Shown here in pieces: positions 24,367-63,235 of a stretch of 64,000 nt of DNA. A program made the position numbers and the translations under genes. The notes beneath the pieces were generated by a model that had not been told where the DNA came from, made no database searches, and saw only the letters and a list, made by a program, of their open reading frames with translations. Each line of letters starts with the position of its first letter. Positions within the stretch are counted from its first letter, which is position 1. This DNA is from Squalus acanthias (taxonomy: Eukaryota), in NCBI GenBank assembly GCA_030390025.1, contig CM059452.1, positions 9,610,001 to 9,674,000 of the forward strand. Direction: 5' to 3'.

Positions 24367-24927
24367 CACAGAGACACGGAGCTGGGCTGGACCTGTACAA
24401 AAACTGTCAGAGCGTCGCTCAACATATCAGCGCGTCAGGGGAGCATTGTGATCAGGGGCGAGTCTCAGCTGGTCCCTGTATTTGTGATTAGACATTGTGC
24501 TGTTAATTCTAATATATAGGTATCTTTATTCCTGCAATTTGTCTCTTTTTAAGTATTTATCCAATTCCCCTTTGAATGTTATTATTGAATCTGCTTCCAC
24601 CGCCCTTTCAAGGCAGTGAATTCCAGATCACAACAACTCACTGAGTAAAAGATCAAATCTCCTCATCTCCTGTCTGGGTCTTTTGCCAAGTATCTTCAAT
24701 GTGTTTGTCCTCTGGGTACCGACCCTCCTGCCAGTGGAAACAGTTTCTCCTTATTAACTTTATCAAAACTCTTCATATATTTCTGTGTGGATACAGTCAC
24801 TCTGGGAACTCCTATTCTGAAATGCTATCCCGCTTTTGTTGTGTGAGCGACAATCTCACCGCCTGTTGGGATTTATTACTCACAGTTATTGGAACTTTAT
24901 CTAAACGTTTCCCTCTCTGTCCTTTAG

Positions 24928-25232
24928 ACAGCGTCCTTGGATGGATCGCTCATTGGCCAATGGAAGAGGTGACCGCTCAGGAGGGAGAGATCGCGACAAT
25001 AACCTGCTCCTATACAGAGGTGACGAGAGTTTGCCTGTCCTGGTACCGGGAGGGTCGGTCCGTGGGCCCGGAGAATATCCTCATCCGCTGCACCGACCGG
25101 TTCAGTGACGATGCGAACTTTGCAAGACGGCGCTTCACCTCATCTTTGGCCAAAACTTACAGAGCCGTCAGTTTAAGGGTTTCACAGCTGACAGCTGCGG
25201 ATTCCAGGAAATACTTCTGGGTCATAACACCG
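24928..25232 (+). pseudogene. Atypical V exon (C104->W), leader disabled
   Basis: ITC..VCLSWYRE..IRC..DSRKYFW. Degenerate RSS CACACGG-23-ACAATAAAC (25233-25271). The leader-like exon upstream has a stop and no ATG. Confidence 0.75.
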
Positions 25233-25571
25233 CACACGGTTCTGTATTTAGAGCAAGAGCCGACAATAAACTACAGGTGCTCCGGCGCGGCAGACTGTGA
25301 CAGTGAACTCTCTGGTTTATTGTATCTCATGGTCCAATGTCACTGTGTAGTCTGACGGAGAAGGACAACAATTCTTCCATTCAAAATGTTTCCTCACGTG
25401 CCATAAACAGACAGACCGCTGTGTGGGCGGATGATGCTGTCGTTAATGACCACAGATTGAAAATATCTGGAAAGTCGCTGGACTCCCAAATCCCTTTGAC
25501 CCTCCACAGGAATCTGAGCCAACAACACTCTCTACAGAACATTCCACATTCTCGCTTCCCTTTGAAAGAAA

Positions 25572-26480: not shown

Positions 26481-28382
26481 ATACATAGAACAGATACATA
26501 GAACAGTACAGCACAGTACAGGCCCTTCGGCCCTCGATGTTGTGCCGAGCATTGTCCGAGACCAAGATCAAGCTATCACACTCCCTATCACTCTGGTGTG
26601 CTCCATGTGCTTATCCAATAACCGCTTGAAAGTTCCTAAAGTGTCCGACTCCACTATCACAGCAGGCAGTCCATTCCACACCCCAACCACTCTCTGAGTA
26701 AAGAATCTACCTCGAACATTCCTTCTATATCTCCCCCCATGCACCTTATAGTTATGCCCCCTTGTAACAGCTGCCTCTACCCGAGGAAATAGTCTCTGAA
26801 CATCCACTCTATCTATCCCCCTCATCATCTTATAAACCTCTATTAAGTCGCCTCTCATCCTCCTCCGCTCTAAAGAGAAAAGCCCCAACTCCCTCAATCT
26901 TTCCTCATAAGACCTCCCCCCCAAACCAGGCAGCATCCTGGTAAATCTCCTTTGCACTCTTTCCAATGCTTCCACGTCCTTCCTATAGTGAGGTGACCAG
27001 AACTGCACACAATATTCCAAATGTGGTCTCACCAAGGTCCTGTACAGTTGCAGCATAACCTCACGGTTCTTAAACTCAAACCCTCTGTTAATAAACGCCA
27101 ACACACCATAGGCCTTCTTTACTGCTCTATCCACTTGAGTGGCAACCTTCAGAGATCTGTGGATATGAACCCCCAGATCCCTCTGCTCCTCCACGTTCCT
27201 CAGAACCCTGCCGTTGACCCTGTAATCCTTATTCAAATTTGCCCTACCAAAATGAATCACCTCGCACTTATCAGGGTTAAATTCCATCTGCCATTTTTCG
27301 GCCCAGCTCTGCATCCTATCAATGTCTCTTTGCAGCCGACAACTGCCCTCCACCTCATCCACTACTCCACCAATCTTGGTGTCATCAGCAAATTTACTGA
27401 TCCACCCTTCAGTCCCCTCCTCCAAGTCATTGATAAAAATCACAAACAGCAGAGGACCCAGCACCGACCCCTGTGGCACACCGCTGGTAACTGGTCTCCA
27501 GTCCGAAAATGTTCCATCCACCACCACCCTCTGCCTTCTATGAGATAGCCAGTAACTTATCCAATTGGCCAAATTTCCCTCTATCCCACAACTCCTTACT
27601 TTCTTCATGAGACGACCATGGGGAACCTTATCAAACGCCTTACTAAAATCCATGTATACGACATCAACTGCTCTACCTTCATCTACACACTTAGTTACCT
27701 CCTCAAAGAATTCAATCAAATTTGTTAGGCAAGACTTACCCTTCACGAATCCGTGTTGACTATCCCTGATTAAGTTGCCCCTTTCCAAATGGTCATAAAT
27801 CCAATCCCTCAGGACCTTTTCCATTATCTTACCAACCACCGAAGTAAGACTAACCGGCCTATAATTACCAGGGTCATTCCTATTTCCTTTCGTGAAGAGA
27901 GGAACAACATTCGCCACTCTCCAGTCCTCTGGCACCATCCCCGTGGACAGTGAGGACCCAAAGATCAAAGCCAGAGGCTCAGCAATCTCCTCCCTTGCCT
28001 CCCAAAGAATCCTAGGATATATCCCATCTGGCCCAGGGGACTTATCGACCCTCAGGTTCTTCAAAATTGCTAAAACATCTTCCCTCAGAACATCTACCAC
28101 CTCCAGCCTATCCACCTTTATCACACTCTCATCCTCAAAAACATGGCCCCTCTCCTCGGTGAACACTGACGAAAAGTATTCATTCATCACCTCTCCTATC
28201 TCTTCTGACTCCATGCACAAGTTCCCACTACTGTCCTTGACCGGCCCTACCCTCACCCTGGTCATTCTTTTATTTCTCACATAAGAGTAAAAAGCCTTGG
28301 GGTTTTTCTTGATCCGACCCGCCAAGGACTTCTCATGCCCCCTCCTAGCTCTCCTAAGCTCTTTTTTTAGCTCATTCCTTAC
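26481..28382 (-). mobile_element. Young 5'-truncated CR1 LINE with uninterrupted RT ORF
   Basis: ORF 26568-28493: KSPGPDG, YRPVSLTS, DFSKAFD, GVPQGSVLGP, FADD. An empty paralogous site is at about 12737. Confidence 0.95.
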
Positions 28383-28545
28383 TAATGTTTTTGTCCCTGT
28401 TAGTGTTGATGTACAAGGTTCGACATTCGCCATCAGCACACCCGCAACACACCTCCCCATAAATGGACACTGGCAACTGCCCCATACACACATTTATTGT
28501 CTGTTTTCACCCAATAGCCGAACAATGTAAAAGGTCTCATCGTAT

Positions 28546-28559: not shown

Positions 28560-29969
28560 CGTGGTCCCATGATTCTCGCTGCTCCCTCGGGACTCGAACT
28601 ATTGTTCTTCCTGATTTGTGGAAACGCATCATAATTTCAAAGCCTACTTGTATCTGAGTTTGTGTTCGTAGGATTCAGCAAAGCTTTCCCCCCATCTCTT
28701 TTACTTTGTCAGCTATTCATCGTCACAATCTCTACCACGCTTATGAATTATTTCCTTATACTGCATATCTTAAAGCGACTGCGAGTGACATCTTTGGTAG
28801 CTGCCGTTTGAAAAAAAAATCCTTATATATTAAAATCTGGAATGAATGACACATTCAGAGATACGGGACTGTAACCCGGGTGAGGAGTATCTCCCGTGTC
28901 AATAAGCACCATTTCCCTTCCCATATGATTAATTTCAGCACAGTGGAATGGCGCCTCCTGTGAGTTTCAGGCAGACATCAATCTAACAGGTTCAGCAGAT
29001 ATTTGGGGAAGGGGCTCATATTCCCCTCCGAGCAATTACCAACACAGTCGGGTGATGACGGTCAGATATTATCTCGAGGTGACAATATATCGGTTTGAAA
29101 GTAGATGAAGCTGTTGTTTATTTCAATCACTGCCACTAATCAGACTGCGGTGGTTGACGGGGAGTCGGGTTTGATTAACCTGCTGGGGACCCATAGTGGG
29201 AAGATTTCCTCCGGTCTCTCTCTGGAAATCTCATCCACAATTTGTTTTAACGAAATCGCAAGCTTATTATTTTAGAATGTGTTCACTATTTCTTTAGAAA
29301 TAGCGACCAGAGTAAATCTACCGAACAGAGCGGATAGTTCAGTGTAAACAAAATTGTTACAGGAGAAGGAAGTTAATGCTCTCGGTGAGCCGCCACGCAC
29401 CGACATAAAATAAACAAACACTCAGTGTGACCAATTCGGGCCCATTAAATAAATCCCCAAACCTCAGCAAAATTGAAACTTTCTTCACACCATAGGCAGC
29501 GCTCACTGAGTGATTGGCTTCATCTTCAGATACTTTAAACCGTGGTTCCAAGGGTTTCAACTGAGCCATGAGCCGCACTTGAATCTCATTTCAATATATG
29601 GCGGGTGTATTGGAGAAGTTGTCATTGGAGGGGAACAATGAGAGCAGGAAGTGACTTTGGACAATAGGAGCATCTGACGAGGTCGATTCCGGTCCGGAAT
29701 TGTTCGTTTAAAGAGAGCGACAGGTTCGGGCTCGGCAGCGGCCATGCGGATATTCAGCGCCTGGGTTGTGTTTGGGGTGTTTATTGTCGGTAAGGATTAA
29801 TCCAATTGTGTCGTGTTCAAACTAAAGTGTTAATATTATTTCAGCTTTTAATATTCGGCTTTATCTTGTTAATGAACACATGTTACAGATCAGAGTGATG
29901 GAGATTCTGTTACTCAGTCCCAGACTTCAGTCAGCAGGAGAGAAGGTAAAGCGGTAACTATGAGATGTG

Positions 29970-30057
29970 CAAAAGTGAGAAGTCGCACAACACCAGGTTA
30001 TAGTCCAACAGTTTTATTTGAAATCACAAGCTTTCGGAGCTGCTGACGAAGGAGCAG
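29970..30057 (-). mobile_element. Penelope-like element terminal (pLTR) fragment, left end of composite insertion
   Basis: Reverse complement of 36864-36937, followed by CTGACGAAGGAGCAG. Confidence 0.75.
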
Positions 30058-31008
30058 AAGCAGCAGAGTGGTGGTCTCTGTGAGCAGGAAGAGGAGAAGG
30101 AGAAGGAGACCAGACAGCAGACCACCACCAACACAACCAACAACCACAACTGAGGTGCCTGGAGAGAGAGGACAGGAGAGGAGAGGAGAAAGAAAGGAAG
30201 GCCAAGGCCATCAACAACAGAGGAGAGGCCTTTCCACACTGCCTCCTCAATTGGCCTCCATTTTAGGAGAGGGAGAGAGGGGAGAAAACACCAACAACAA
30301 ACATCAACTGTTTGGAAGGAGGAAGAAGGAAAGAATATCAGCTACAGGTGGGTGTGATTCTGGTGCACTCTCCCAGCGACTTTGTTTTGTAGGTGGGGGG
30401 AGGAAAGAAGAAAAGAAGAAGGCCGGAACATCCAAGGGGTGTGTGTGTGTGGCTTCTGTAAAAGCTAGGCCGCACACACCATATTAAACACCCCTTTCCC
30501 ATTGCCTGACCTGGGACAGCTGGAGCTGTCTAGGTGAAGTCCCCAATTAATTTAATCTTATTGGGCATCGTTAAGACCTGGTGCAGGACTGAGCCTGGGC
30601 ATCTCCAGCTGTCCCAGGTGAAGACATCTTCTCCCCCCACCAGAAGACCACCACCAAAGACTTTTATTACATCGGAGAGTGCACCCCCCTGCCAACACCC
30701 ACCCACCCACATCCTGAGTGGCGACCCTGCCCTTGCGGCTTCCCTCCTTCCCACCCCCTCTCTCTCTCTCTTTGTCTCTTGTCTCTCTCTGCCTCTCTCT
30801 CTAAGAGGCACCTCATCTATTTTAATTAAGTACCTATTGAGCAGAGGGGAGAAGGCCCCTCTCCCAATTCAATCAACTAAAGGGAGAGGTGTGCCTTCAA
30901 TTTAAGAGCTCCCTCTGCTCAGGGGAAAACAGAAACAAAAAAACCGAGGCCATTAACACCTTCAGGCCTGTGACTTGGGGTGAGTGTAGCCCTTAAAGAC
31001 CCTCCATC

Positions 31009-33166
31009 ATGGCGACCACATCTTCGCCGGTGGCGGGGGCAGCGAGGACATACGCAAGCGTGGCAGCCGCGGCCACGGCCGCAGCCACGAGTCCTCCTGT
31101 TACCCCGTCACCTTTTACCCTCCTTACGAGGAAGAATGGGGTCAAGAGCTACACTCACCCCAATATGACAATAGAGGCGTGCGTAAAAGCCATGGCTGGG
31201 GTTGTCGGCCCTTCAGCCATCGTCGCCGCCTCTAAAATGTACGGCAAGGCTGTGTTCTTCCTGGGGTCGGAGCGGGCGGTGTCCCTGGCCATCGAGAAGG
31301 GGCTCACCGTGGGCGGGACCTTCCTGCCGGTGGACCCCCTTGAGGCCACCGCACAAAGGATTGTGGTTTCCAACGTCCCGCCCTTTGTTCCGGGTGAGCT
31401 CCTCCTCCCCCACCTACGTCAACTGGGGGAGGTGAGGTCGGGGATCACACCCATCCCGCTCGGCTTCCGGGAAGCCAGCCTTCGGCACGTCTTCTCCTTC
31501 CGGCGCCAGCTTTTCGTCCGGCTGGCGCGGGAGGAGGACGCGGATGGCGCGTTCACGGTGCTCCACGGGGGGACCGCCCACCGCGTCTTCTGGACCTCGG
31601 ACGGCGCGCGGTGCTACGCCTGTAAGGAGGTGGGGCACGTCCGCAAAAACTGCCCCGCCTCCAAGGCCGCCACGACACCTGGCGCGGCCAGGGCTGGCGC
31701 CACCGCCCCCCCTCCCCCTGATACTGTCCGCGCGTCGACGGCGACGGATGCGCGGTCGAAATCGGAGGCCAACACCATCACGGCCTCCGGCGGGGGGGAG
31801 GGAGAGCGTCCAGGGGGAAGGAAGGCGCGTAGAAAAAATAAACACCTAAGGGCGGATCCCCTCGTGGAGGAAACATCCGAGTTGACCGAACTCACGCCCG
31901 AGTACATCGCGGAGTTGATCGGGACGCATGAGACTGGGGGGGTCCTCGTTCCCGGGCCCGTGACCGTGACCGCAACTGCAGAGGCAGCTGAATCAAGACC
32001 TGCGGCCGGGCTCGGGCCCGAGGGGCCCAAGAAACCCAGTCATCGGAAGGGGGCAGAGAGGGAGGCCCCAGCAGACATGGAGGCCTCCCCCTCTCCGGGC
32101 CCCAATATGTTAAAAAGGAAGCTCGACCCCCAGGAGGAGGACTGCGAGGAGGAAGGTCCCTCCGCAAAAGGGGGGCAGTCGCCCGCCGCGGGTGCTGCGC
32201 CCCACCCCACCACCGTCATCGTCGCGCGCGATCGGCGGGGGTCGTCTGTCCCTCGGGAGGGTGAGACAGCCGAGTCTGTCCGACCTGTGCCTCCCGGGGA
32301 TGGGGAAGAGACCCTGCCCGTGGGGGGGGGGCGCGGAACAACCCGCGGAGGGAAATGTAGAACCTGAACCGTTGCTCCTCGCCGGGTCGGGCGTCCTGGG
32401 GACTGGGGCGGGCGAGGCCAAAGAGGCTGAAGCCGAGCCCGTCTTTTATAACCCAGATATCTCCAGGGACTGCTCGACCTGGTGGAGGAGTGTAGCAATC
32501 CCCAGCCCGCTGGGTCGGAGGTTGGTGGCGGGGAGACGGAAAGCCCCCTGACTCCGTCTCTGTTGTTGGCGCCGGACGTGCTGGAGGAATTTGGGATTAT
32601 TTTCTCCCCGGTTTCTCCGGTCGCCCCGGCGCCTGAGGCGGGGGGGGGCCCCGAACCGCCGCCGCCGCCTCCCGGCCCGGCGCCCCTGAAGGAGCCCAGG
32701 GTGGACTCCTCTGCCACCGATCCTGGGGGTGGGATCGTGACGGAGGCGGGGCCGGCCGGTGCGGCCGAGCCGTTCGCTGCACCCCTGTGCGACGGACGGG
32801 TCGGCCGCCGGTGACGACCTCCCGGAGGAGGACGGGGACTCGGTGGTGGGCATCGAGGACGATTTGGAGTCCATCGGCAGCGAGGTGATGGACGCCCTCG
32901 TGCCCTTCACCGACTCTCCCCTCATCCCCGTAGGGGAACTCCGGGATTTTATGGCCATGAGCCAGGGTCGTCACAAGAAGATCCGGCTGGCCCTCGACAA
33001 GTGGTCGGAGCTGGCGCTGCTCGTCGTGTCCGTCCGCGCCGCCGTTAAAATCATGGGCGCGGACAAGGACGTTGGCCGGCTCGAGCTGCGTCGGCTCAAG
33101 ACGTTCCACACTGGGCTGCTGAGGGAGTGGCGGTCGTCAGTGACCGCGCTCCCTCCCCTCCGTTAG
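31009..33166 (+). pseudogene. Tx1 ORF1 (gag-like), frameshifted
   Basis: IVAASKMYGKAVFFL, VSNVPPF, CYACKEVGHVRKNC. Continues through other frames to the stop at 33166. Confidence 0.85.
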
Positions 33167-33191
33167 GTAGAGGTTGCACTATGCTTCTGAG

Positions 33192-36100
33192 ATGAAGATA
33201 ACCATAGCCAGCCTCAACATCAACGGCAGCAGGGAGGCGCGCCGTAGATTCAATAACTTCTCGGTCCTTCGGGACGGGAAATATGCGGTGTGCTTCCTGC
33301 AAGAAACCCACACCGTTCCGGGAGACGAGGCCACGTGGCTCCTGGAGTGGCAAGGAGGGGTCAGCATGAGTCACCTCTCTAACAATTCCTGCGGGGTGGC
33401 TGTCTTGCTGGCCCCGCATTTTCAGCCGGAGATCTTGAGGGTCAAGGAGCACGTGCCGGGCCGCTTGCTCCAGGTCACTGTTCGCCTGGGAGGCGTGCCA
33501 CTCCATTTAGTGAACGTGTACGCCCCCCGGACCAGTGCGCAGCAAGTGCGCTTCTTCGGAGAAGTGTCCGCTCTTCTGGGCTCCATCGACGTGGGCGAGT
33601 GCGTCATCCTCGGGGGGGATTTCAATTGTACCCTCGAGGCGCGGGACCGGTCGGGTCCCCCGCGAAGCCCGGCGGCGATGGAGAAGTTGCGGGACCTGGT
33701 CGGGTCCTTCGACTTGGTGGACGTCTGGCGAAATCTCCATCCCGACTCCAGCGCCTTCACGAGCGTGAGGTCTGGAGGAGGAAGGTCCAGAATCGACCGC
33801 CTTTACATTTCCCGGGCGTACGTCTCCTGCGTTCCGGCAGCTTCCATGCGGCCGGTGCCATGCACGGACCACCACCTGGTGTGGGCGGAGCTCGCTCCGC
33901 TGCGCGCGCGGGGGGGGTCCGCGTACTGGCATTTTAACAACCTGCTGCTGGAGGACGTGCGGTTCCGGGATTCGTTTCGCCGGTTCTGGGCCGACTGGAG
34001 AAGGAAGCGGGGAGGCTTCCCCTCCTTGAGGCTATGGTGGGACGTGGGCAAGGCTCACGTCCACGTCTTCTGTCAGGAGTACGCGAAGGGGTCGACCAAG
34101 AGGCGGGAGGCCCGGGTCGGGCAATTGGAGAAAGAAGTGCTCGACCTGGAGTCCCGTCTCGGTCAAGCCGTCGAGGACCCGGCCCTGCGGAAGGTGTACG
34201 AAGAGAAGAAGGGCGCGCTGAAGGACCTGCAGCTGGTCGGGTCCCGAGGCGCGTACGTGAGGTCGCGGATCCAGTTCCTGCGGGACCTGGACCGCGGCTC
34301 CCCCTTCTTCTACTCGCTGGAAAAAAGACGGGGGGTCCGTAAACAGCTCTTGGGGCTGCTGGCCGACGACGGATCTCTGGTCTCGGATCCGGAGGGCATC
34401 AGCGCGGAGGCCCGGGCCTATTATGGGGCTCTGTTCTCTTCGGATCCGTCCAGCGAGGATGCACGCAGAGTTTTGTGGGAGGACCTGCCGAAGGTCGGCC
34501 CGGAGGACGCCGAGAATTTAGAAGCTCCGCTAAGCCTGGCGGAGCTGACCGGCGCCCTGCGCCAGCTCTCGAGGGGCAAGTCCCCGGGGCTGGACGGGCT
34601 GACCGTGGAGTTCCACAGGGCGTTCTGGGACGTCTTGGGGGACGACTACGCGCGGGTCCTGGGGGAAAGTCTGGCGACCGGGGAGATGCCCCTCTCTTGG
34701 CGCAGGGCGGTCATCGTCCTGCTGCCCAAGAAGGGCGATCTCCGCCTACTTAAGAACTGGCGCCCGGTCTCCCTCCTCAGCACGGACTACAAAATTTTCG
34801 CCAGGGCTATGTCTGCTCGCCTTGGCACCGTGCTGGCCCGCATGATCCACCCTGACCAGTCCTACACGGTCCCGGGCCGGACAATCCATGACAACATCCA
34901 TCTGGTCCGGGACCTGGTCCACCATTCCCAGAGGGCTGGTCTGTCGGTCGCCTTCCTTTCCCTAGATCAGGAGAAGGCGTTCGACAGGGTGGATCACGAG
35001 TATCTTTTCGGGACTCTGCGCGCATTCGGGTTTGGGACGCATTTCGTCGCCCGGATCCGACTTCTGTACGCCGCCGCGGAGTGTCTGATTAAAGTTAACG
35101 GGTCTTTGACGGCGCCCCTTCGCTTCGGGAGGGGGGTGCGTCAGGGATGCCCCATGTCCGGTCAGTTATACGCCGTTTGCGTGGAGCCTTTCCTGCGCCT
35201 CTTGCGGAAGAGGTTGACGGGACTGGCTCTGCAAGGGCCGGGCGTGGAGGTGGTCCTCTCGGCTTACGCCGATGACGTGCTCCTCGCGGTCACGGATCCC
35301 GTCGACTTGCGGAGGATGCGAGAATGCCAGCAGATTTACTCGGACGCATCCTCCGCCAAGATCAACTGGGAGAAATGTTCTGGACTCCTGGTGGGCCCAT
35401 GGCGGGTGGACTCCCTGCCGGAGGAGTTCGGGCCTTTCGCCTGGAGCACCACGCACCTCCTCTACCTGGGAGTCTACCTCAGCCCGGCCGAGGACGCCTG
35501 GCCGGCGAACTGGCAAGAGCTGGAGGCCAAAGTCACCGCTCGCCTAGGGCGCTGGACAGGACTGCTCCGAGTGCTGTCCTACAGGGGTCGAGCGCTGGTC
35601 ATAAACCAGCTGGTGGCCGCCATGTTGTGGTACCGGCTGGTCACTTTGATCCCTCCCCCTGCGTTTGTCGCCAAGATGCAGAAGAAGCTCGTCGACTTCT
35701 TCTGGGACAAAAGGAAGCACTGGGTCTCTGCCACGGTTTTGAGTCTCCCGCTTAGGGAGGGCGGTCAGGCGCTGGTGTGCCTTCGCACCCAGGCGGCGAC
35801 TTTCCGTCTTCAGACGCTGCAGAGATACCTGTACGTGGAGAATCCTCCTAGGTGGCATGCGCTGGCGACGTATTTCTTCCGGCAGCTGCACGGCCTCAAT
35901 TACGACACGCAGCTCCTGTTTGTGAGAGTGGGTGGCACGTGTGCCAGCCTGCGGGAGCTGCCTGTCTTCTACCAGGAACTGCTATGGGTTTGGAACAGCG
36001 TCGCCTCCGAGCGCAGTTCTCCCCCGTCAGGAGCGGCGGCCGTCCTTCGGGAGCCGCTGTTCAGGAATCCGCACCTCCACGACCTGCGGGTTCGGCTGGC

Positions 36101-36769
36101 TGGCGGAGGGCAGGGCTGTGCCCGGTAAGGTGACCAGAGTCGGGGACCTGCTCGATGGCGGAGGAGCGGGCTGGATGGCGCCGGAGGAGTTGGCGAGGCG
36201 CATGTCCTGGGTCAACGTCCGGCTCGCGGTCAAAGCCATCGAGTCGCTAAAAGTGGCACTGGGCCCCGTCTCCACTAGGTGTGTCGAGGAGGCTCAGGCA
36301 CGTGGGGCGATCCCGTCCGAACTGACCCCCGTTCGGACGGAATTCCTTATCGGCGCCCGGCCCCGAATCCTCCCTCGGGAGCCGCCGCCTCACCACTTGA
36401 GCCTTCTCGGAGAAATGCCCTCCGTGCCCTTTCAATCCGCACGGAGGCGTTTCCTGTACGGGCTGCTCCTGCACACTCTCCACTTTGCCATCTTCGTCTG
36501 CCGTCCGGACACGCCTTGGCGTACCATCCTGCCGTCCGGCGGAGGCGAAGGTCCCCATTGGAAGGCTCTCTACGCGGGAGTCTTCCCTTGTTCTATTGGG
36601 GACTTGGCCTGGAGGGTGTTGCACGGAGCAGTCCCGTGCAATAGGATTTTTAAGTAGGTTTACGGACTCCCAGGCTGCTTGCCATTTCTGCGGCCTGGCG
36701 GAGTCCGTCTATCACATTTATGTTGAGTGTGAGAGGTTGCAGCCCCTCTTTCATTATTTTAAAAAGAGG
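33192..36769 (+). pseudogene. Tx1 ORF2: APE endonuclease, reverse transcriptase and zinc-binding domain, with late frameshifts
   Basis: SLNING, LQETH, GGDFN, SRID, TDH; WRPVSLL, LDQEKAFDRV, GVRQGCPMS, YADD. Frameshifts at about 36085 and 36650. Confidence 0.92.
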
Positions 36770-36968
36770 AACACCAGGTTATAGTCCAACAGTTTTATTT
36801 GAAATCACAAGCTTTCGGAGCTGCTGCTCCTTCGTCAGGTGACCTTCACCTGACGAAGGAGCAGCAGCTGCGAAAGCTCGTGATTTCAAATAAAACTGTT
36901 GGACTATAACCTGGTGTTGTGCGACTTCTCACTTTTGTCCACCCCAGTCCAACACCGGCATCTCCGCA
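36770..36968 (+). mobile_element. Penelope-like element 3' terminus with inverted pLTR (73-bp arms)
   Basis: Arms 36770-36842 and 36846-36918 (2 mismatches), then tail ..CCCCAGTCCAACACCGGCATCTCCGCA. Confidence 0.8.
36846..36883 (+). ncRNA. Minimal hammerhead ribozyme motif (PLE-type); second copy on minus strand 36805-36842
   Basis: TCAC-CTGACGA-A-GGAGC-AGCA-GCT(C/G)C-GAAA-G-CT(C/T)-GTGA: catalytic cores CUGANGA and GAAA, helix II, helix I TCAC/GTGA, NUH site, palindromic helix III. Confidence 0.65.
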
Positions 36969-37589
36969 TATAAGATGTACCTACAGTACCACAGAAAACT
37001 ATTATAATTTATATTGGTACCAGCACCAAGCAGAGAAGGAGCCCCAGTTTGTAATCAGGAGACGTTCTTGGGACACACAGGAACGGAGAGGAAAAGGTTT
37101 CGGAATCCGTTTTTCTGCTCAGCTGCAGACCGCGACTAAATTCAAAAGTTTAACCATTTTCGGGCTGCAGCTGACTGACTCTGTCGTCTATTACTGCACC
37201 CTGGGACTCACAGTGATGGAAAGCAGTCTCACTCCCGTACAAAAATTGCCATTGGACTGTAGGGCGGATCTCCTGTCTGTTGGGGTTGTGCAGAATCGCG
37301 GGCAGATGCAGCCACAATGTGCAGCGCGCTGTCAGGCGCTCAAACACACATCGAGAGGAAACCAAATTAACCTCGGATCAAACTGTCACCCAACTGTTTC
37401 CAGGAGCGGCCGAGAAAACAAACTGCAGAATCCAATCGGCCCAAATGATCGATCACAGAATGAACCGACCGGTTAAACTGTCCTTTCTGCTTCTAATCAG
37501 CTGTTTTCCCTTTAAAATCATGGATCGATGTTCTGATTTGTTCCGAGAAAGTGGTCGCTTACACTCAAACGTCACTCAAATATCGCCGA

Positions 37590-37990
37590 AACAAGTCACC
37601 CAAACATGGCCGAAGGTACGTCACTGAAACATGGCCGACGGCACATCACTTCAACATGTCCGACAGCACGTCACACAAACATGGCCGACGTGCGTCACAC
37701 AAACTGCAGACTGACGTCACGCAAACACAAAGCGGGAGAGTCTAACGCTGACTGAAGCTCAATGTTACATTACATATTCTTCAAGATTACAGAATAGAAA
37801 TGGGAGAAATTATTAATTGTACTTCAGTCATCTTTAATGTTTTGACGCCGATGATCCCTTCTGGCTGTACACGTTAATAAGTACCGTCTACAGCAAGTGC
37901 AGATTGACGTCACAGAGACTGCAGACTGACGTCACAGCGACTGCAGACTAACGTCACAGAGACTGCAGACTGACGCCATACAGACTGCAG
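37590..37990. promoter_or_regulatory. Cluster of CRE (TGACGTCA) and AAACATGGCCGA repeats
   Basis: Three perfect and several near CREs in short tandem units; paralog at 55540-55810. Confidence 0.5.
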
Positions 37991-38754
37991 CCTGCACGAT
38001 GTCACCAGTGGACATGGGAATAGGAAAATCTGCGGTTTGTGAAGGGAATGGAGGTGATGGGGAGAAATGAGCGAGAGGACAAGCAGAAAAGATGGGGATA
38101 AATAGACGGAAAAAGCAGACGGGGAACGGAAAAACAAACAGTAGGTTCAAATTCTGAACTGGAACAATAGAAGTGATTGATTGAAAGGAATATCTGATCA
38201 ATGTACTCGTGCAGCTGAGTGAGCAACCCCTCGGTGGATCAGCCCCACCCATGTCTGCTTGCCATCTTTAAGTATCTGAGCATTGTACATATACAAGTGA
38301 ATGAGGCCCCTCACTGTGGACCAGCTCAGTGTCTGTCTGCTCTCAATGGTTAAAGATTTGAGCAATGTAGCTGTGCAGGTGAATGAAGCTACCTCCATAG
38401 ATCAGCTCTTTGCCAGTCTGTACACTTTGAGAGGGAGATAGATAAAGGTGAGAATGAGTACAGTGAGACAGAGAGACACCAACAGAGGGCGATTGAGTCA
38501 GGCGTGTATTTATAAATATAAAGTCACAAAAAGGGAACAGTTTAATAAGGGTTGTGCTGACTATTCCCCCATGAGGATAACCCCGGAAGCCGTGCAGCGG
38601 GGTAAAGGGATCGGCACTGTTCTGTGTAATACAAATGGATAATGAGAGGACTGATTAATCAAAACCTGACTGAGGCAGAGTGACTCACACGGACACTGGC
38701 AGAGAGAGTGACGCTGGCTGAACCTCAGGGACACACAAACAGACTGCAGACTTT

Positions 38755-48189: not shown

Positions 48190-51100
48190 AACAGTACAAA
48201 TCAGCCATGGTGGATATTCACCTCTTCCTGCTTGGGAGCAGCAGAGAGAGCGGACCGACCTGTGAGGGAACAGGCGAAGGAGGAGCGAGAAGATAAAGCC
48301 CGATGCTCGAGGCCCAAACCGAGCTCTTGGGAGCAGCAGCGAGAGCGGACCTCAACAGGCAACATTCGAAAGTGACGTCAGAGATTAAAAGTGACGTCGG
48401 CACAAGGAAGGAGCTGAATGGTAAGTAGGACCTGGTGAGTATTTCTACAGTCCAGTCGTTAAAGTATAAGCAAGGTCTCTAGTTTAGAGTAAGTAGTGTT
48501 TAAAGTGAAGTAAGGTCCCTAGTGTATTTAATATTCTTTAATTTAAAGGAAGTAAAGGGAGTAAATTAAGGGTAGGACATGGCAGGGCAGCTCGGCAGTG
48601 TGGAGTGCTCCTCCTGTGCAATGTGGAAAGTCAGGGACACTTTCGGTGTCCAGGGAGAACACGTGTGCAGGAAGTATCTCCTGCTGCAGCTACTCGAAAT
48701 ACGCGTTTCGGAGCCGGAGCTGTAGCTGGAGTCACTGTGGAGCATCCGCAAAGCTGAGATCTTCGTGGATAGCACGTTTAACGAAGTGGTCACACCGCAG
48801 GTAAAGAGTGCACAGGCAGACAGGGAATGGGTGACCGCCAAACAGGGTAAAAGAACTAGGAAGGTAGTGCAGAAGTCCCCTGGGTCCATCTCCCTCTCCG
48901 ACAGATTTTGCGTTTTGGATACTGATGGGGGAGATGGTTTCTCAAAGGAATGCAGCAAGAGCCAAGTGTGGCACTAAGAGTGGCTCAGCTGCACAGGAGG
49001 GGAGGAAAAAGAGTGGGAGAGAAATGGTGATAGGAGATTCTATCGTAATGGGAGCAGATAGACGTTTCTGTGGCCGCAGACGTGACTCTAGGATGGTATG
49101 TTGCCTCCCTGGTGCCAGGGTTAAGGATGTCACTGAACTGCTGCAGGACATTCTGAAGGAGGAGGGTGAACAGCCAGAGGTCGCGGTCCATATCGGTACC
49201 AATGACATAGATAGAAAGAGGGACGAGGTCCTGCAAGCAGAATATCGGGAGCGAGGAAATAAATTAAAAACCAGGACCTCAAAGGTAGTAATCTCAGAAT
49301 TACTTCCAGTGCCACGTGTTAGCGAGAGCAGAAATAGTAGAATAGACCAGATGAATGCGTGGCTGGAGAGATGGTGTAGGAGGGAGGGATTTAAATTCCT
49401 GAGGCATTGGGACCGATTCTGGGGAAGGTGGGACCTGTACAAGCTGGACGGGTTACACCTCGGCAGAAACCGAAAAGCTTCTATAGGTATGTAAAAAGGA
49501 AAAGACTGGCGAAGATAAATGTAGGACCTTTATAGTCAGAGACGGGAGAATTTATAATGGGGAATGAGGAAATGGCAGAGAAATTAAATAAATACTTTGT
49601 TTCTGTCTTCACAAGACACAAGAAACCTCCCAGAAATACAAGAAAACCAAGGGTGTGACGAGAATGAGGAACTTAAATAAATTATTATTAGTAAAAATAC
49701 AGTACTTGCAAAATTAATGGGACTAAAAGTCGATAAATCCCAAGAACCGGATGACCTACATCCTAGGGTTTTGAAAGAGGTGGCCATTGGAATAGTGGAC
49801 GCATTGGTTGTCATCTTCCAAAATTCTATAGATTCTGGAATGGTTCCTGCAGATTGGAGGATAGCAAATGTAACCCCGCTATTTAAGAAAGGAGGGAGAG
49901 AGAAAACAGGGAATTACAGACCTGTTAGCCTCACATCAGTAATTAGGAAAATGCTGGAATCTATTATAAAGGATGCAATAACTGGGCACTTGGAAACTAA
50001 TAGTAAGATTGGGCAGAGTCAACATGGATTTATGAAAGGGAAATCCTGTTTGACAAACCTATTGGAGTTCTTTGAGGATGCAACTAGTGGAGTAGACAAA
50101 GGGGAACCGGTAGATGTGGTGTATCTGGATTTTCAGAAGGCCTTCGATAAGGTCTCACACAAGAGGTTGGTGAACAAAATTAGGGCACATGGAATTGGGG
50201 GTAATATACTAGCATAGATTGAGAATTGGTTAACAGACAGTAAAAAGCAGTAGGGATAAACGGGTCTTTTTCAGGATGCCAGGCTGTGATTAATGGGGTA
50301 CCGCAAGAATCGGTGCTTGGGTCCCAGCTATTCACAATCGATATCAATGATTTGGATGAGCGGACTAAATGTAACATTTCCAAATTTGCTGATGATACAA
50401 AACTAGGTGGCAGTGTCAGTTGCGAAGAGGATGTGAGTGGGCGAGAACATGACAGATTGAATATAATGAGGATAAATGTGAAGTTATCCACTTTGGTAGA
50501 AAAATCAGAAAGGCAGAGTATTTCCTAAATGGTGAAAGATTGGGGAATGCAGATGCTCAAAGGGATATGGGTGTCCTTGTACATGAGTCACGGAAAGTGA
50601 ATGTGCAGGTGCAGCAAGCCATTCGGAAGGCAAATGGTATGCTGGCCTTCATTACACGAGGATTTGAGTACAGGAGTAAAGAAGTCTTACTCCAATTATA
50701 TAGGGCCTTGGTGAGACCACACCAGGAGTACTGTGTACAATTTTGGTCTCCTTACCTAAGGAAGGATATACTTGCCATAGAGGGAGTGCAACAAAGGTTC
50801 ACGAGATTGCTTCCTGGGAAGGCGGGACTGTCGTATGAGAAGAAATTGAGTAAACTAGGCCTGTATTCTCTTGAATTCAGAAAAATGAGAGGGGATCTCA
50901 TTGAAGCATACAAAATGATTACAGGACTTGATAGGATGAATGCTGGGAGAATGTTTCCCTTAGCTGGGGAGTCTAGAACCAGGGGCCACAGCCTCAAGAT
51001 AAAGGGTAGGACATTCAGGGCTGAGATGAGAAAAAATGTCTTCACACAGAGGGTGATGAATCTTTGGAATTCTCTACCCCAGAGGGCTGTGGAGGCTCAG

Positions 51101-55162: not shown

Positions 55163-55539
55163 CACAGTGATGGAAAGCAGTCTCAGCCCTGTACAAAAAC
55201 TGCCATTGGACTGTAGGGCGGAGCTCCTGTCTGTTGGGGTTGTGTGGAATCGCGGGCAGATGCAGCCACAATGAGCAGCGCGCTGTCAGGCGCTCAAACA
55301 CACACCGAGAGGAAACCAAATTAACCTCGGATCAAACTGTCACCCAACTGCTTCCAGGAGCGGCCGAGAAAACAAACTGCAGAATCCAATCGGTCCAAAA
55401 GATCGATCACAGAATGAACCGTCTTTTCTGTTTCTGATCAGCTGTTTTCCCTTAAAGTCATGGATCGATATTCAGAACAGCTCCGAGAAGGAGATTGCTG
55501 ACATTCGCTCGTCACCCAAATATCGCCGAAATCACCGAC

Positions 55540-62030: not shown

Positions 62031-62369
62031 TTCTTTCTTTCAAAGGGAGGTGAGAATGTGAAATGTTCTGGAGAAAGTGTTGTTGGCTCAGATTCCTGTG
62101 GAGGGTCAAAGGGATTTGGGATTCCAGGGACTTGCCAGATCAATCTGTGGTCAACAATAACAACATCATCCGCCCACACAGCGGTCTGTCTGTTTATGAC
62201 ACGTTGAGGATACATTTTGAATGGAAGAATTGTTGTCCTTCTCCGTCAGGCTACACAGTGACATTGGACCATGAGATACAATGAACCAGAGAGTTCACTG
62301 TCACAGTCTGCCGTGCCGGAGCACCTGTAGTTTATCTGTCGGCTCTTGCTCTAAATACAGCAGCGTGTG

Positions 62370-62674
62370 CGGTGTTATGACCCAGAAGTATTTCCTGGAA
62401 TCCGCAGCTGTCAGCTGTGAAACCCTTAAACTGACGGCTCTGTAAGTTTTGGCCAAAGATGAGGTGAAGCGCCGTCTTGCAAAGTTCGCATCGTCACTGA
62501 ACCGTTCGGTGCAGCGGATGAGGATATTCTCAGGGCCCACGGACCGACCCCCCCGGTACCAGGACAGGCAAACCCTGGTCACCTCTGTATAGGAGCAGGT
62601 TATTGTCGCGATCTCTCCCTCCTGAGCGGTCACCTCTTCCATTGGCCAATGAGCGATCCATCCAATGACGCTGT
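62370..62674 (-). pseudogene. Atypical V exon (C104->W), inverted paralog of 24928
   Basis: Near-identical translation. Confidence 0.75.
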
Positions 62675-63235
62675 CTAAAGGACAGGGAGGGAAACGTTTA
62701 GATAAAGTTGCAATAACTGTGAGTAATAAATCCCAACAGGCGGTGAGATTGTCGCTCACACAACCAAAGCGGGATATCATTTCAGAATAGGAGTTCCCAG
62801 AGTGACTGTATCCAAACAGAAATATATGGAGAGTTTTGATAAAGTTAATAAGGAGAAACTGTTTCCACTGGCAGGAGGGTCGGTACCCAGAGGACAAACA
62901 CATTGAAGATACTGGGCAAAAGAACCAGAGAGGAGATGAGGAGATTTGGTTTTTTACTCAGTGAGTTGTTGTGATCTGGAATTCACTGCCTTGAAAGGGC
63001 GGTGGAAGCAGATTTAATAATAACTTTCAAAGGGGAATTGGATAAATACTTAAAAAGAGACAAATTGCAGGAATACAGATACCTATATATTAGAATTAAC
63101 AGCACAATGTCTAATCACAAATACAGGGACCAGCTGAGACTCGCCCCTGATCACAATGTTCCGCTGTCGCACTGATATGTTGAGCGACGCTCTGACAGTT
63201 TTTGTACAGGTCCAGCCCAGCTCCGTGTCTCTGTG

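Follow-up and report, generated by a model that had tools for sequence, protein, structure and literature searches.

Introduction

Tx1L of Xenopus laevis (YTX2_XENLA), a Tx1-type long interspersed nuclear element (LINE), inserts into the non-autonomous piggyBac-type element Tx1D (PMC4494074, PMC1919474), and the crocodilian families Tx1-Mar, Tx1-8_Crp, Tx1-4_AMi and Tx1-9_AMi prefer Mariner, long terminal repeat or Harbinger elements (PMC4494074). Here we analyze a Tx1 element of Squalus acanthias that lies within a Penelope-like element (PLE), which itself splits a T-cell receptor (TCR) alpha/delta-type V segment. The locus was studied in a stretch of 64,000 nt (assembly GCA_030390025.1, contig CM059452.1, positions 9,610,001 to 9,674,000 of the forward strand; G000:C29:9610001-9674000), hereafter the window. 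Loci fetched for comparison carry L numbers.

Several other retroelements bear on how such insertions form. Crocodilian tandem SINEU-3 copies sandwich a target-site duplication (TSD; PMC4494074). Drosophila R1 makes a 14-bp TSD and forms tandem arrays when new copies enter the TSD that borders a resident copy on its 5′ side; the RNA of melanogaster-type R1 carries target sequence that anneals and primes the second strand (PMC2718515). Chimeric L1 insertions have long TSDs and cDNA-genome homology joining that resembles synthesis-dependent strand annealing (PMC8087252); for R9Av, a long TSD is indicated by the title of a reference cited in PMC12203849. PLEs generate inverted and tandem end structures (PMC8557442), with inverted ends also treated in PMC11167929. 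The pseudo-long terminal repeats (pLTRs) of metazoan PLEs contain minimal hammerhead ribozymes with palindromic positions 15.2-16.2 and no helix III, which are thought to be dimeric and for which poor activity has been reported (PMC4209133).

Order of insertions in the split V segment

The composite very probably arose in successive steps: a short PLE palindrome entered the V exon first, a site-specific Tx1 element later inserted into its inverted arm together with a target-derived leader, and 392 nt were lost inside the Tx1 tail. The locus comprises the following features (UTR, untranslated region; ORF, open reading frame; RT, reverse transcriptase; APE, apurinic/apyrimidinic endonuclease).

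29744..29789, plus strand: leader exon of the TCR alpha/delta-type V segment, ATG to GT donor, read in the sequence; paralogues have the same layout
29889..29968, plus strand: 5′ portion of the V exon, up to and including the left PLE TSD copy (29959-29968, perhaps to 29970); V-pLTR joint at the same base in L103 and L104
29970..29988, minus strand: first portion of the inverted (antisense) pLTR arm, which breaks off where Tx1 inserted; from blastn against the sense arm and from the PLE-only paralogues
29989..30064, plus strand: left Tx1 TSD copy (about 29989-30002) and target-derived 5′ leader, made of pLTR +1..+57 and a collapsed-palindrome piece; no complete hammerhead
30065..31008, plus strand: Tx1 5′ UTR proper, aligning to base 1 of the natural full-length copy L063
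31009..33166, plus strand: Tx1 ORF1 (zinc knuckle), with frameshifts near 32322, 32463 and 32782
33192..36759, plus strand: Tx1 ORF2 (APE endonuclease, RT, zinc-finger motif), with frameshifts near 36085 and 36647; lacks about 110 residues at the C terminus
36759..36761, plus strand: joint of the 392-nt internal deletion, which removed the end of ORF2 and most 3′ UTR sequence, with an extra T at 36760 and no microhomology
36761..36769, plus strand: final 9 nt of the Tx1 3′ tail, the same terminus as in other copies
36770..36842, minus strand: remainder of the inverted pLTR arm, the Tx1 target, with the right TSD copy at about 36770-36783 and a minus-strand minimal hammerhead motif at 36805-36842
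36846..36968, plus strand: sense pLTR arm with the PLE 3′ end; minimal hammerhead motif at 36846-36883, one stem-II mismatch
36969..37208, plus strand: 3′ portion of the V exon, beginning with the right copy of the PLE TSD; Pfam V-set match, top PDB matches mostly TCR delta/alpha V domains
37209..37247, plus strand: recombination signal (RSS) with a 23-bp spacer, directly 3′ of the V exon

The two V exon halves end and start with TATGAGATGT (29959-29968) and TATAAGATGT (36969-36978), at the coordinates given by an initial annotation of this DNA. That annotation placed the whole insert within a single TSD. The outer 10-bp repeat, identical at 9/10 positions, belongs to the older PLE insertion as its TSD, which may span 12 bp if divergence of the left copy is allowed for, and Tx1 has a second, inner duplication starting at 29989 and 36770. 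The palindrome consists of an inverted, 5′-truncated pLTR copy beside a sense copy, plus a minimal hammerhead motif; its 73-bp inverted arms (36770-36842 and 36846-36918) flank a centre at 36843-36845. The PLE origin proposed for the terminal sequence holds: at L068, L076, L086 and L213 the repeat continues into a GIY-YIG frame (Atlas score 0.97; cluster named GIY-YIG, with PF01541 on 23% of its members), and a Pfam scan of the PLE frames gave no GIY-YIG match.

The relative age of the two insertions is recorded by the V paralogues. Among 19 paralogous V loci fetched, 16 are uninterrupted at the insertion place and three have the same pLTR end; the right flanks of the V duplicates are 96.6-97.5% identical. 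Two of the three (L103 and L104) contain the PLE palindrome alone, as a 182-nt insert joined to the V segment at the same bases as in the window and without Tx1. Their inverted arms match window positions 36770-36842 at 72/73 and 71/73 bases, and the last 83 nt of the window sense arm are 81/83 identical to both. The third (L102) carries a three-unit Tx1 array in the other palindrome arm and on the opposite strand, separate from the window Tx1. Because V paralogues carry the palindrome both with and without Tx1, the PLE probably preceded Tx1, and the likely sequence is PLE insertion, V duplication and then independent Tx1 arrivals. The initial annotation had named a palindrome without Tx1 as support for insertion into an existing PLE; both this arrangement and the empty V exon exist among the paralogues. 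The first step is visible as the PLE palindrome with a 10-12-bp TSD in the V exon, an insertion common to four V duplicates.

Two further observations concern these paralogues. In L103 and L104 the palindrome centre and the sense-arm hammerhead have been lost between two GTGA copies, and the window centre is complete. The three-unit array of L102 (L122/L123/L213; G000:C29:10322300-10352299) terminates in another PLE copy that bears an ORF, and the next 8 kb contain no 5′ half of a V segment; either Tx1 copies within the V locus recombined ectopically or the assembly is misjoined here.

Hammerheads had been proposed for both ends of the composite. By motif match, a complete minimal core occurs in the right palindrome, once per strand; scanning both strands of the left end yielded none. 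An Rfam scan of the window returned four weak matches, none inside the composite, and no hammerhead at E ≤ 1. As far as tested, the predicted hammerheads appear to play no part in the Tx1 insertion mechanism.

Target specificity of the Tx1 family

As the initial annotation had recognized, the insert is a Tx1-type LINE whose ORF2 stops after the zinc finger. Pfam identifies zf-CCHC, Exo_endo_phos and RVT_1 domains, and ORF2 is 54% identical to Xenopus Tx1L ORF2 over 963 aa (98% of the query), which is the best functionally named match; the clade placement comes from similarity search. Partial ORF2 matches of highest identity come from cartilaginous fishes. The zinc-finger motif lies at residue 1163 of an intact natural ORF2 copy, and the window ORF2 ends just past it, near residue 1190 of 1299. 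The window element is 98.2-98.4% identical to natural full-length copies and has five coding frameshifts. Intact reading frames for both ORFs were present in 8/30 copies tested; the family is young.

Throughout the 3.7-Gb genome, a 23-nt motif of the 3′ UTR has 938 exact copies, and the tail followed by AACAC has 1,128, of which 971 continue as the antisense pLTR site; reversed-pattern controls for the motif counts were all 0. Both window junctions are standard for the family, with about a thousand occurrences. The pLTR target site itself occurs 68,779 times exactly. In a position-ordered sample, 28/30 Tx1 3′ ends abut the pLTR site (27 with a 12/12 match and one at a variant pLTR), and the other two share the site core only. 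Sites outside pLTRs (L065, L089 and L091) keep a CAACAC core. This distribution indicates that the family is site-specific for one fixed base of the antisense pLTR, where its own APE endonuclease would nick and prime target-primed reverse transcription (TPRT), the second step of our proposed order.

Copies stack head to tail with a period of about 7,180 bp, and some palindromes have been hit by Tx1 in both arms. Tail-to-tail Tx1 copies in both arms of one palindrome, about 100-870 bp apart, were seen at L067, L088 and L096 and at G000:C4:152277722 and 152277819. Distant Tx1 relatives (78-93% identical) lie in reversed orientation in the CA-rich part of the 5′ UTR near position 370 at L064, L094 and L095. 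Near-identical Tx1-PLE arrangements occur in L088/L175 versus L176/L177 (C2:164.56 and 164.78 Mb) and in L096 (C3806) versus L067/L201 (C4:43.98 Mb), and represent either segmental duplications or haplotig duplicates.

A target-derived leader and proposed homology-guided 5′ joining

Paired ends were compared in 107 units, drawn from 99 fetched stretches plus the L102 paralogue and the window and chosen by similarity rank or position. By 5′ end, 49 have a long leader, 11 a medium and 14 a short one, 20 are truncated with target-like flank, 12 lack a recognizable target and one was dropped. Left out of the counts were L096, a probable haplotig duplicate, and, among truncated units, L068, which has no true target. 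Column tests kept 34/38 long-leader pairs, omitting L159, L192 and L193 (target deleted inside +57) and L182 (indel); permutation tests used 33 pairs after removal of L176 as a duplicate.

Truncated copies define the basal duplication. Of the 20 truncated units with target-like flank, 19, from 11 loci, have 11-15 nt of target at the left end (one of the 19 was scored by hand). Off-pLTR sites show this as well, and the usual enzymatic TSD is accordingly 11-15 bp, with a mode of 12-14 bp. Target-like leaders of full-length copies measure 15, about 45 or 57+ nt. These classes, at least three in number, differ in their joints to the UTR, as expected of several independent target captures.

The exact 57-bp direct repeat of the window (29989-30045 and 36770-36826), reported by the initial annotation, belongs to the long class. 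Of the 34 long-leader pairs with an intact right pLTR (window included), 31 show a difference between the two copies within +16..+57; a motif at +49..+57 is present in 31/34 left copies and 4/34 targets. This left-right mismatch, together with the motif, implies that the leader travels with the element. The window 57-mer recurs identically in 7/33 other leaders and 2/33 other targets, and the repeat is likely to be landing-site sequence that the family carries or copies. Because left and right copies agree in part, and some left copies differ from their own target already at +11, the point of switching from target to element appears variable; beyond +31, concordance is not in excess (15 discordant pairs versus 16.0 permuted). 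Leader and target in the window have no distinguishing base, so its switch point could lie anywhere between about +12 and +57.

Tandem arrays extend this pattern. Units of truncated tandem loci share one 5′ breakpoint in 7/8 cases (L142/143, with different breakpoints, is the exception), and adjacent same-breakpoint pairs have different tails in 9/10 compared. The tandem pair at L086 has 0 differences in its first 521 nt and 18 in its last 480 nt. Among full-length arrays, 6/12 adjacent pairs share an identical stretch of 191 nt or more, whereas none of 60 random pairs exceeds 81 nt; L095 and L099 contributed no array pair to this comparison. Most simply, an incoming cDNA would be joined, guided by homology, to the resident copy that lies downstream of the nick, and the resident 5′ part would be duplicated, which suggests that homology-guided 5′ joining may also make long duplications.

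We lean, by a modest preference, towards a general model in which the family carries up to about 70 nt of Penelope target as a leader and routinely uses homology for 5′ joining; duplications would then range from 12 bp to hundreds, copies would inherit the resident 5′ end, and chimeric arrays would grow in place. In the third step of the proposed order, the leaders of full-length copies mostly do not track their own target, and the top-strand overhang would anneal to the cDNA copy of the leader. The switch could fall farther downstream wherever cDNA and flank are homologous, so that target is re-captured and arrays are built.

Several observations weigh against our account of the locus and its family. 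Discordance within +16..+30 affects 16/33 pairs, versus 22.7 under permutation (P = 0.003), and the leader is thus not purely element-borne. Concordance at +24 is likewise in excess (19/33, P = 0.008), falling to 16/30 (P = 0.12) once three pairs that share rare variants are removed. Ten truncated and two full units have no recognizable target at the 5′ end. Ectopic recombination or misjoins can scramble paired ends, as at L102, where the array ends in a different PLE. Finally, the window deletion and frameshifts rest on one assembly.

Gene conversion after insertion, or unequal exchange among adjacent repeats, could instead have produced the shared tandem breakpoints and rare variants, a possibility that we regard as rather doubtful and that touches the 5′-joining step only, not the event order. 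Arrays are recombinogenic, and the array pairs at L098 and L214, without a difference over 885 and 483 nt, fit plain recent duplication. Most same-breakpoint pairs, however, agree in their 5′ parts and differ in their 3′ parts and tails, as at L086, and simple duplication does not give this pattern.

It is improbable that the window repeat records a single long stagger, with the top strand cut or copied at least 57 bp downstream and the whole repeat a freshly duplicated target. The 57/57 identity would fit, as would the 57-nt identical runs in 3/33 pairs (0.8 expected, P = 0.014) and the rare target variants beyond +15 shared by left copy and target at L170, L181 and L182; L1 TSDs of 119 bp and up to 323 bp are also on record (PMC8087252). 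Yet the seven other leaders equal to the window 57-mer, together with the bases after it, which match other leaders, make new copying unnecessary, and the modal TSD is far shorter. A 94-bp version fails, as the collapsed centre belongs to the leader in many copies. The initial annotation was right to consider insertion of Tx1 into an existing PLE palindrome, whereas its unusual 57-94-bp duplication resolves into an 11-15-bp TSD and, for the most part, an element-borne copy of target.

An internal deletion in the window copy

Described initially as lacking any tail, the window copy is not a 3′-truncated LINE. Its nearest relatives run about 400 nt beyond 36759 and then end in a short A-rich terminus directly before AACACC. 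The family terminus AAAAAGAGG is retained at 36761-36769; the 392 nt before it are lost and one T is added. The joint is single-copy in the genome, and a relaxed pattern for tail-keeping deletions gave three matches genome-wide, the two besides the window being point variants of intact tails; the deletion is private for these reasons. It would be a one-off accident, the fourth step of the proposed order, which arose either when ends were joined once the element had inserted or through an early jump of the RT; misassembly is the less likely source. Comparable internal deletions occur in L068, L085 and L099.

Public reads were also consulted. None of the 21 runs listed contains half of the V-flank words, and no RNA run with them is listed. 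Logan contigs from four runs, examined over 36550-37300, show the family continuing normally past 36759; no listed piece spans the stretch, and these contigs are uninformative on the window allele. A master locus with the window's Tx1-pLTR junction was sought genome-wide and none was found, and recombination of two PLE copies across the Tx1 3′ end is rejected in view of the retained tail. Separately, the Tx1 5′ UTR contains a 34-nt inverted repeat (30509-30542 and 30586-30619; 82%) that may form an RNA hairpin.

It seems very improbable that misassembly created the 392-nt deletion or the composite as a whole. In favour of this are the single-copy junction and the position of 3/5 coding indels within or next to homopolymers, which points to consensus error. 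Consensus errors are usually 1-2 nt, however; independent paralogues match the V halves, the outer TSD and the two arms of the PLE, and other copies have the comparable deletions listed above.

One of the two initial models, in which a single event moved 6.7 kb of cargo as a Penelope RT, primed at the V exon, snapped back, switched to a Tx1 mRNA template and then came back, is scarcely credible: pLTR sequence does lie at both ends inside one outer TSD and PLEs do form inverted and tandem ends (PMC8557442), but the PLE palindrome probably came first and Tx1 copies arrived separately, the same PLE insertion being cargo-free in two paralogues and accompanied by a different Tx1 array in the other arm of a third, while both junctions are standard for the Tx1 family and the Tx1 tail is kept. 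The sequence evidence indicates a nested insertion, with Tx1 in an older PLE palindrome in a V pseudogene, and not Penelope-driven cargo transport.

Other features of the window

Further V segments occur in both orientations at 24645-25352 (plus) and 62304-62957 (minus), with RSSs at 55163 (plus) and 8362 (minus). Another RT frame (RVT_1) lies at 26571-28493 (minus) and a GDSL-lipase-like frame at 48868-49491 (plus); such GDSL-lipase-like frames are typical of some LINE ORF1s. Positions 68-2663 hold overlapping long stop-free frames of up to 457 aa, two of which were scanned and gave no Pfam match. At 37596-37999, 3′ of the RSS that follows the split V exon, lie short tandem repeats of 22 and 25 bp.

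Comparison with known systems

In itself the locus is unremarkable, a nested insertion by which one V segment is inactivated, and its V paralogue series orders events in time, from PLE to V duplication to independent Tx1 hits. Its significance lies rather in the Tx1 family and its 5′-joining behaviour. The leader and chimeric tandems make the priming of the second strand in TPRT testable from genome data. If homology joining is real, about 1,000 natural insertions next to a polymorphic target would chart the start points of second-strand synthesis in TPRT. The leader and tandems also hint at a precise APE-type integrase of vertebrates.

Tx1 families aimed at other transposons are already known, and the Penelope pLTR would be a new target class. 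Our literature search, at the level of listings and abstract openings, found no Tx1 with this target; Repbase, subscription journals and the supplements of PMC4494074 lay outside that search and may contain one. The target preference of crocodilian Tx1 families is looser (a criterion of over 20%) than the 28/30 observed here, and the sections of PMC4494074 consulted name no PLE target. On the PLE side, the core motifs fit the minimal hammerheads of metazoan PLEs described in PMC4209133; with one copy per strand here, the locus has no same-strand dimer partner.

As for 5′ joining, homology-guided events of the chimeric L1 kind are rare in that system as described, whereas here they are seemingly routine, every insertion landing beside homologous DNA. 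The parallel with R1 extends to TSD length, arrays by re-insertion and a target-bearing 5′ end. R1, of another clade and with another target, carries upstream target sequence and makes a 9-bp deletion, whereas the family described here carries its TSD plus downstream target and leaves an apparent long duplication. Tx1L resembles this family in ORF2 sequence (the 54% identity noted above), in having two ORFs, in its APE-RT-zinc finger organization and in a fixed site inside another transposon. The Squalus family differs from Tx1L in having the antisense pLTR of a Penelope-like retroelement as target, an 11-15-bp TSD and a leader in three lengths.

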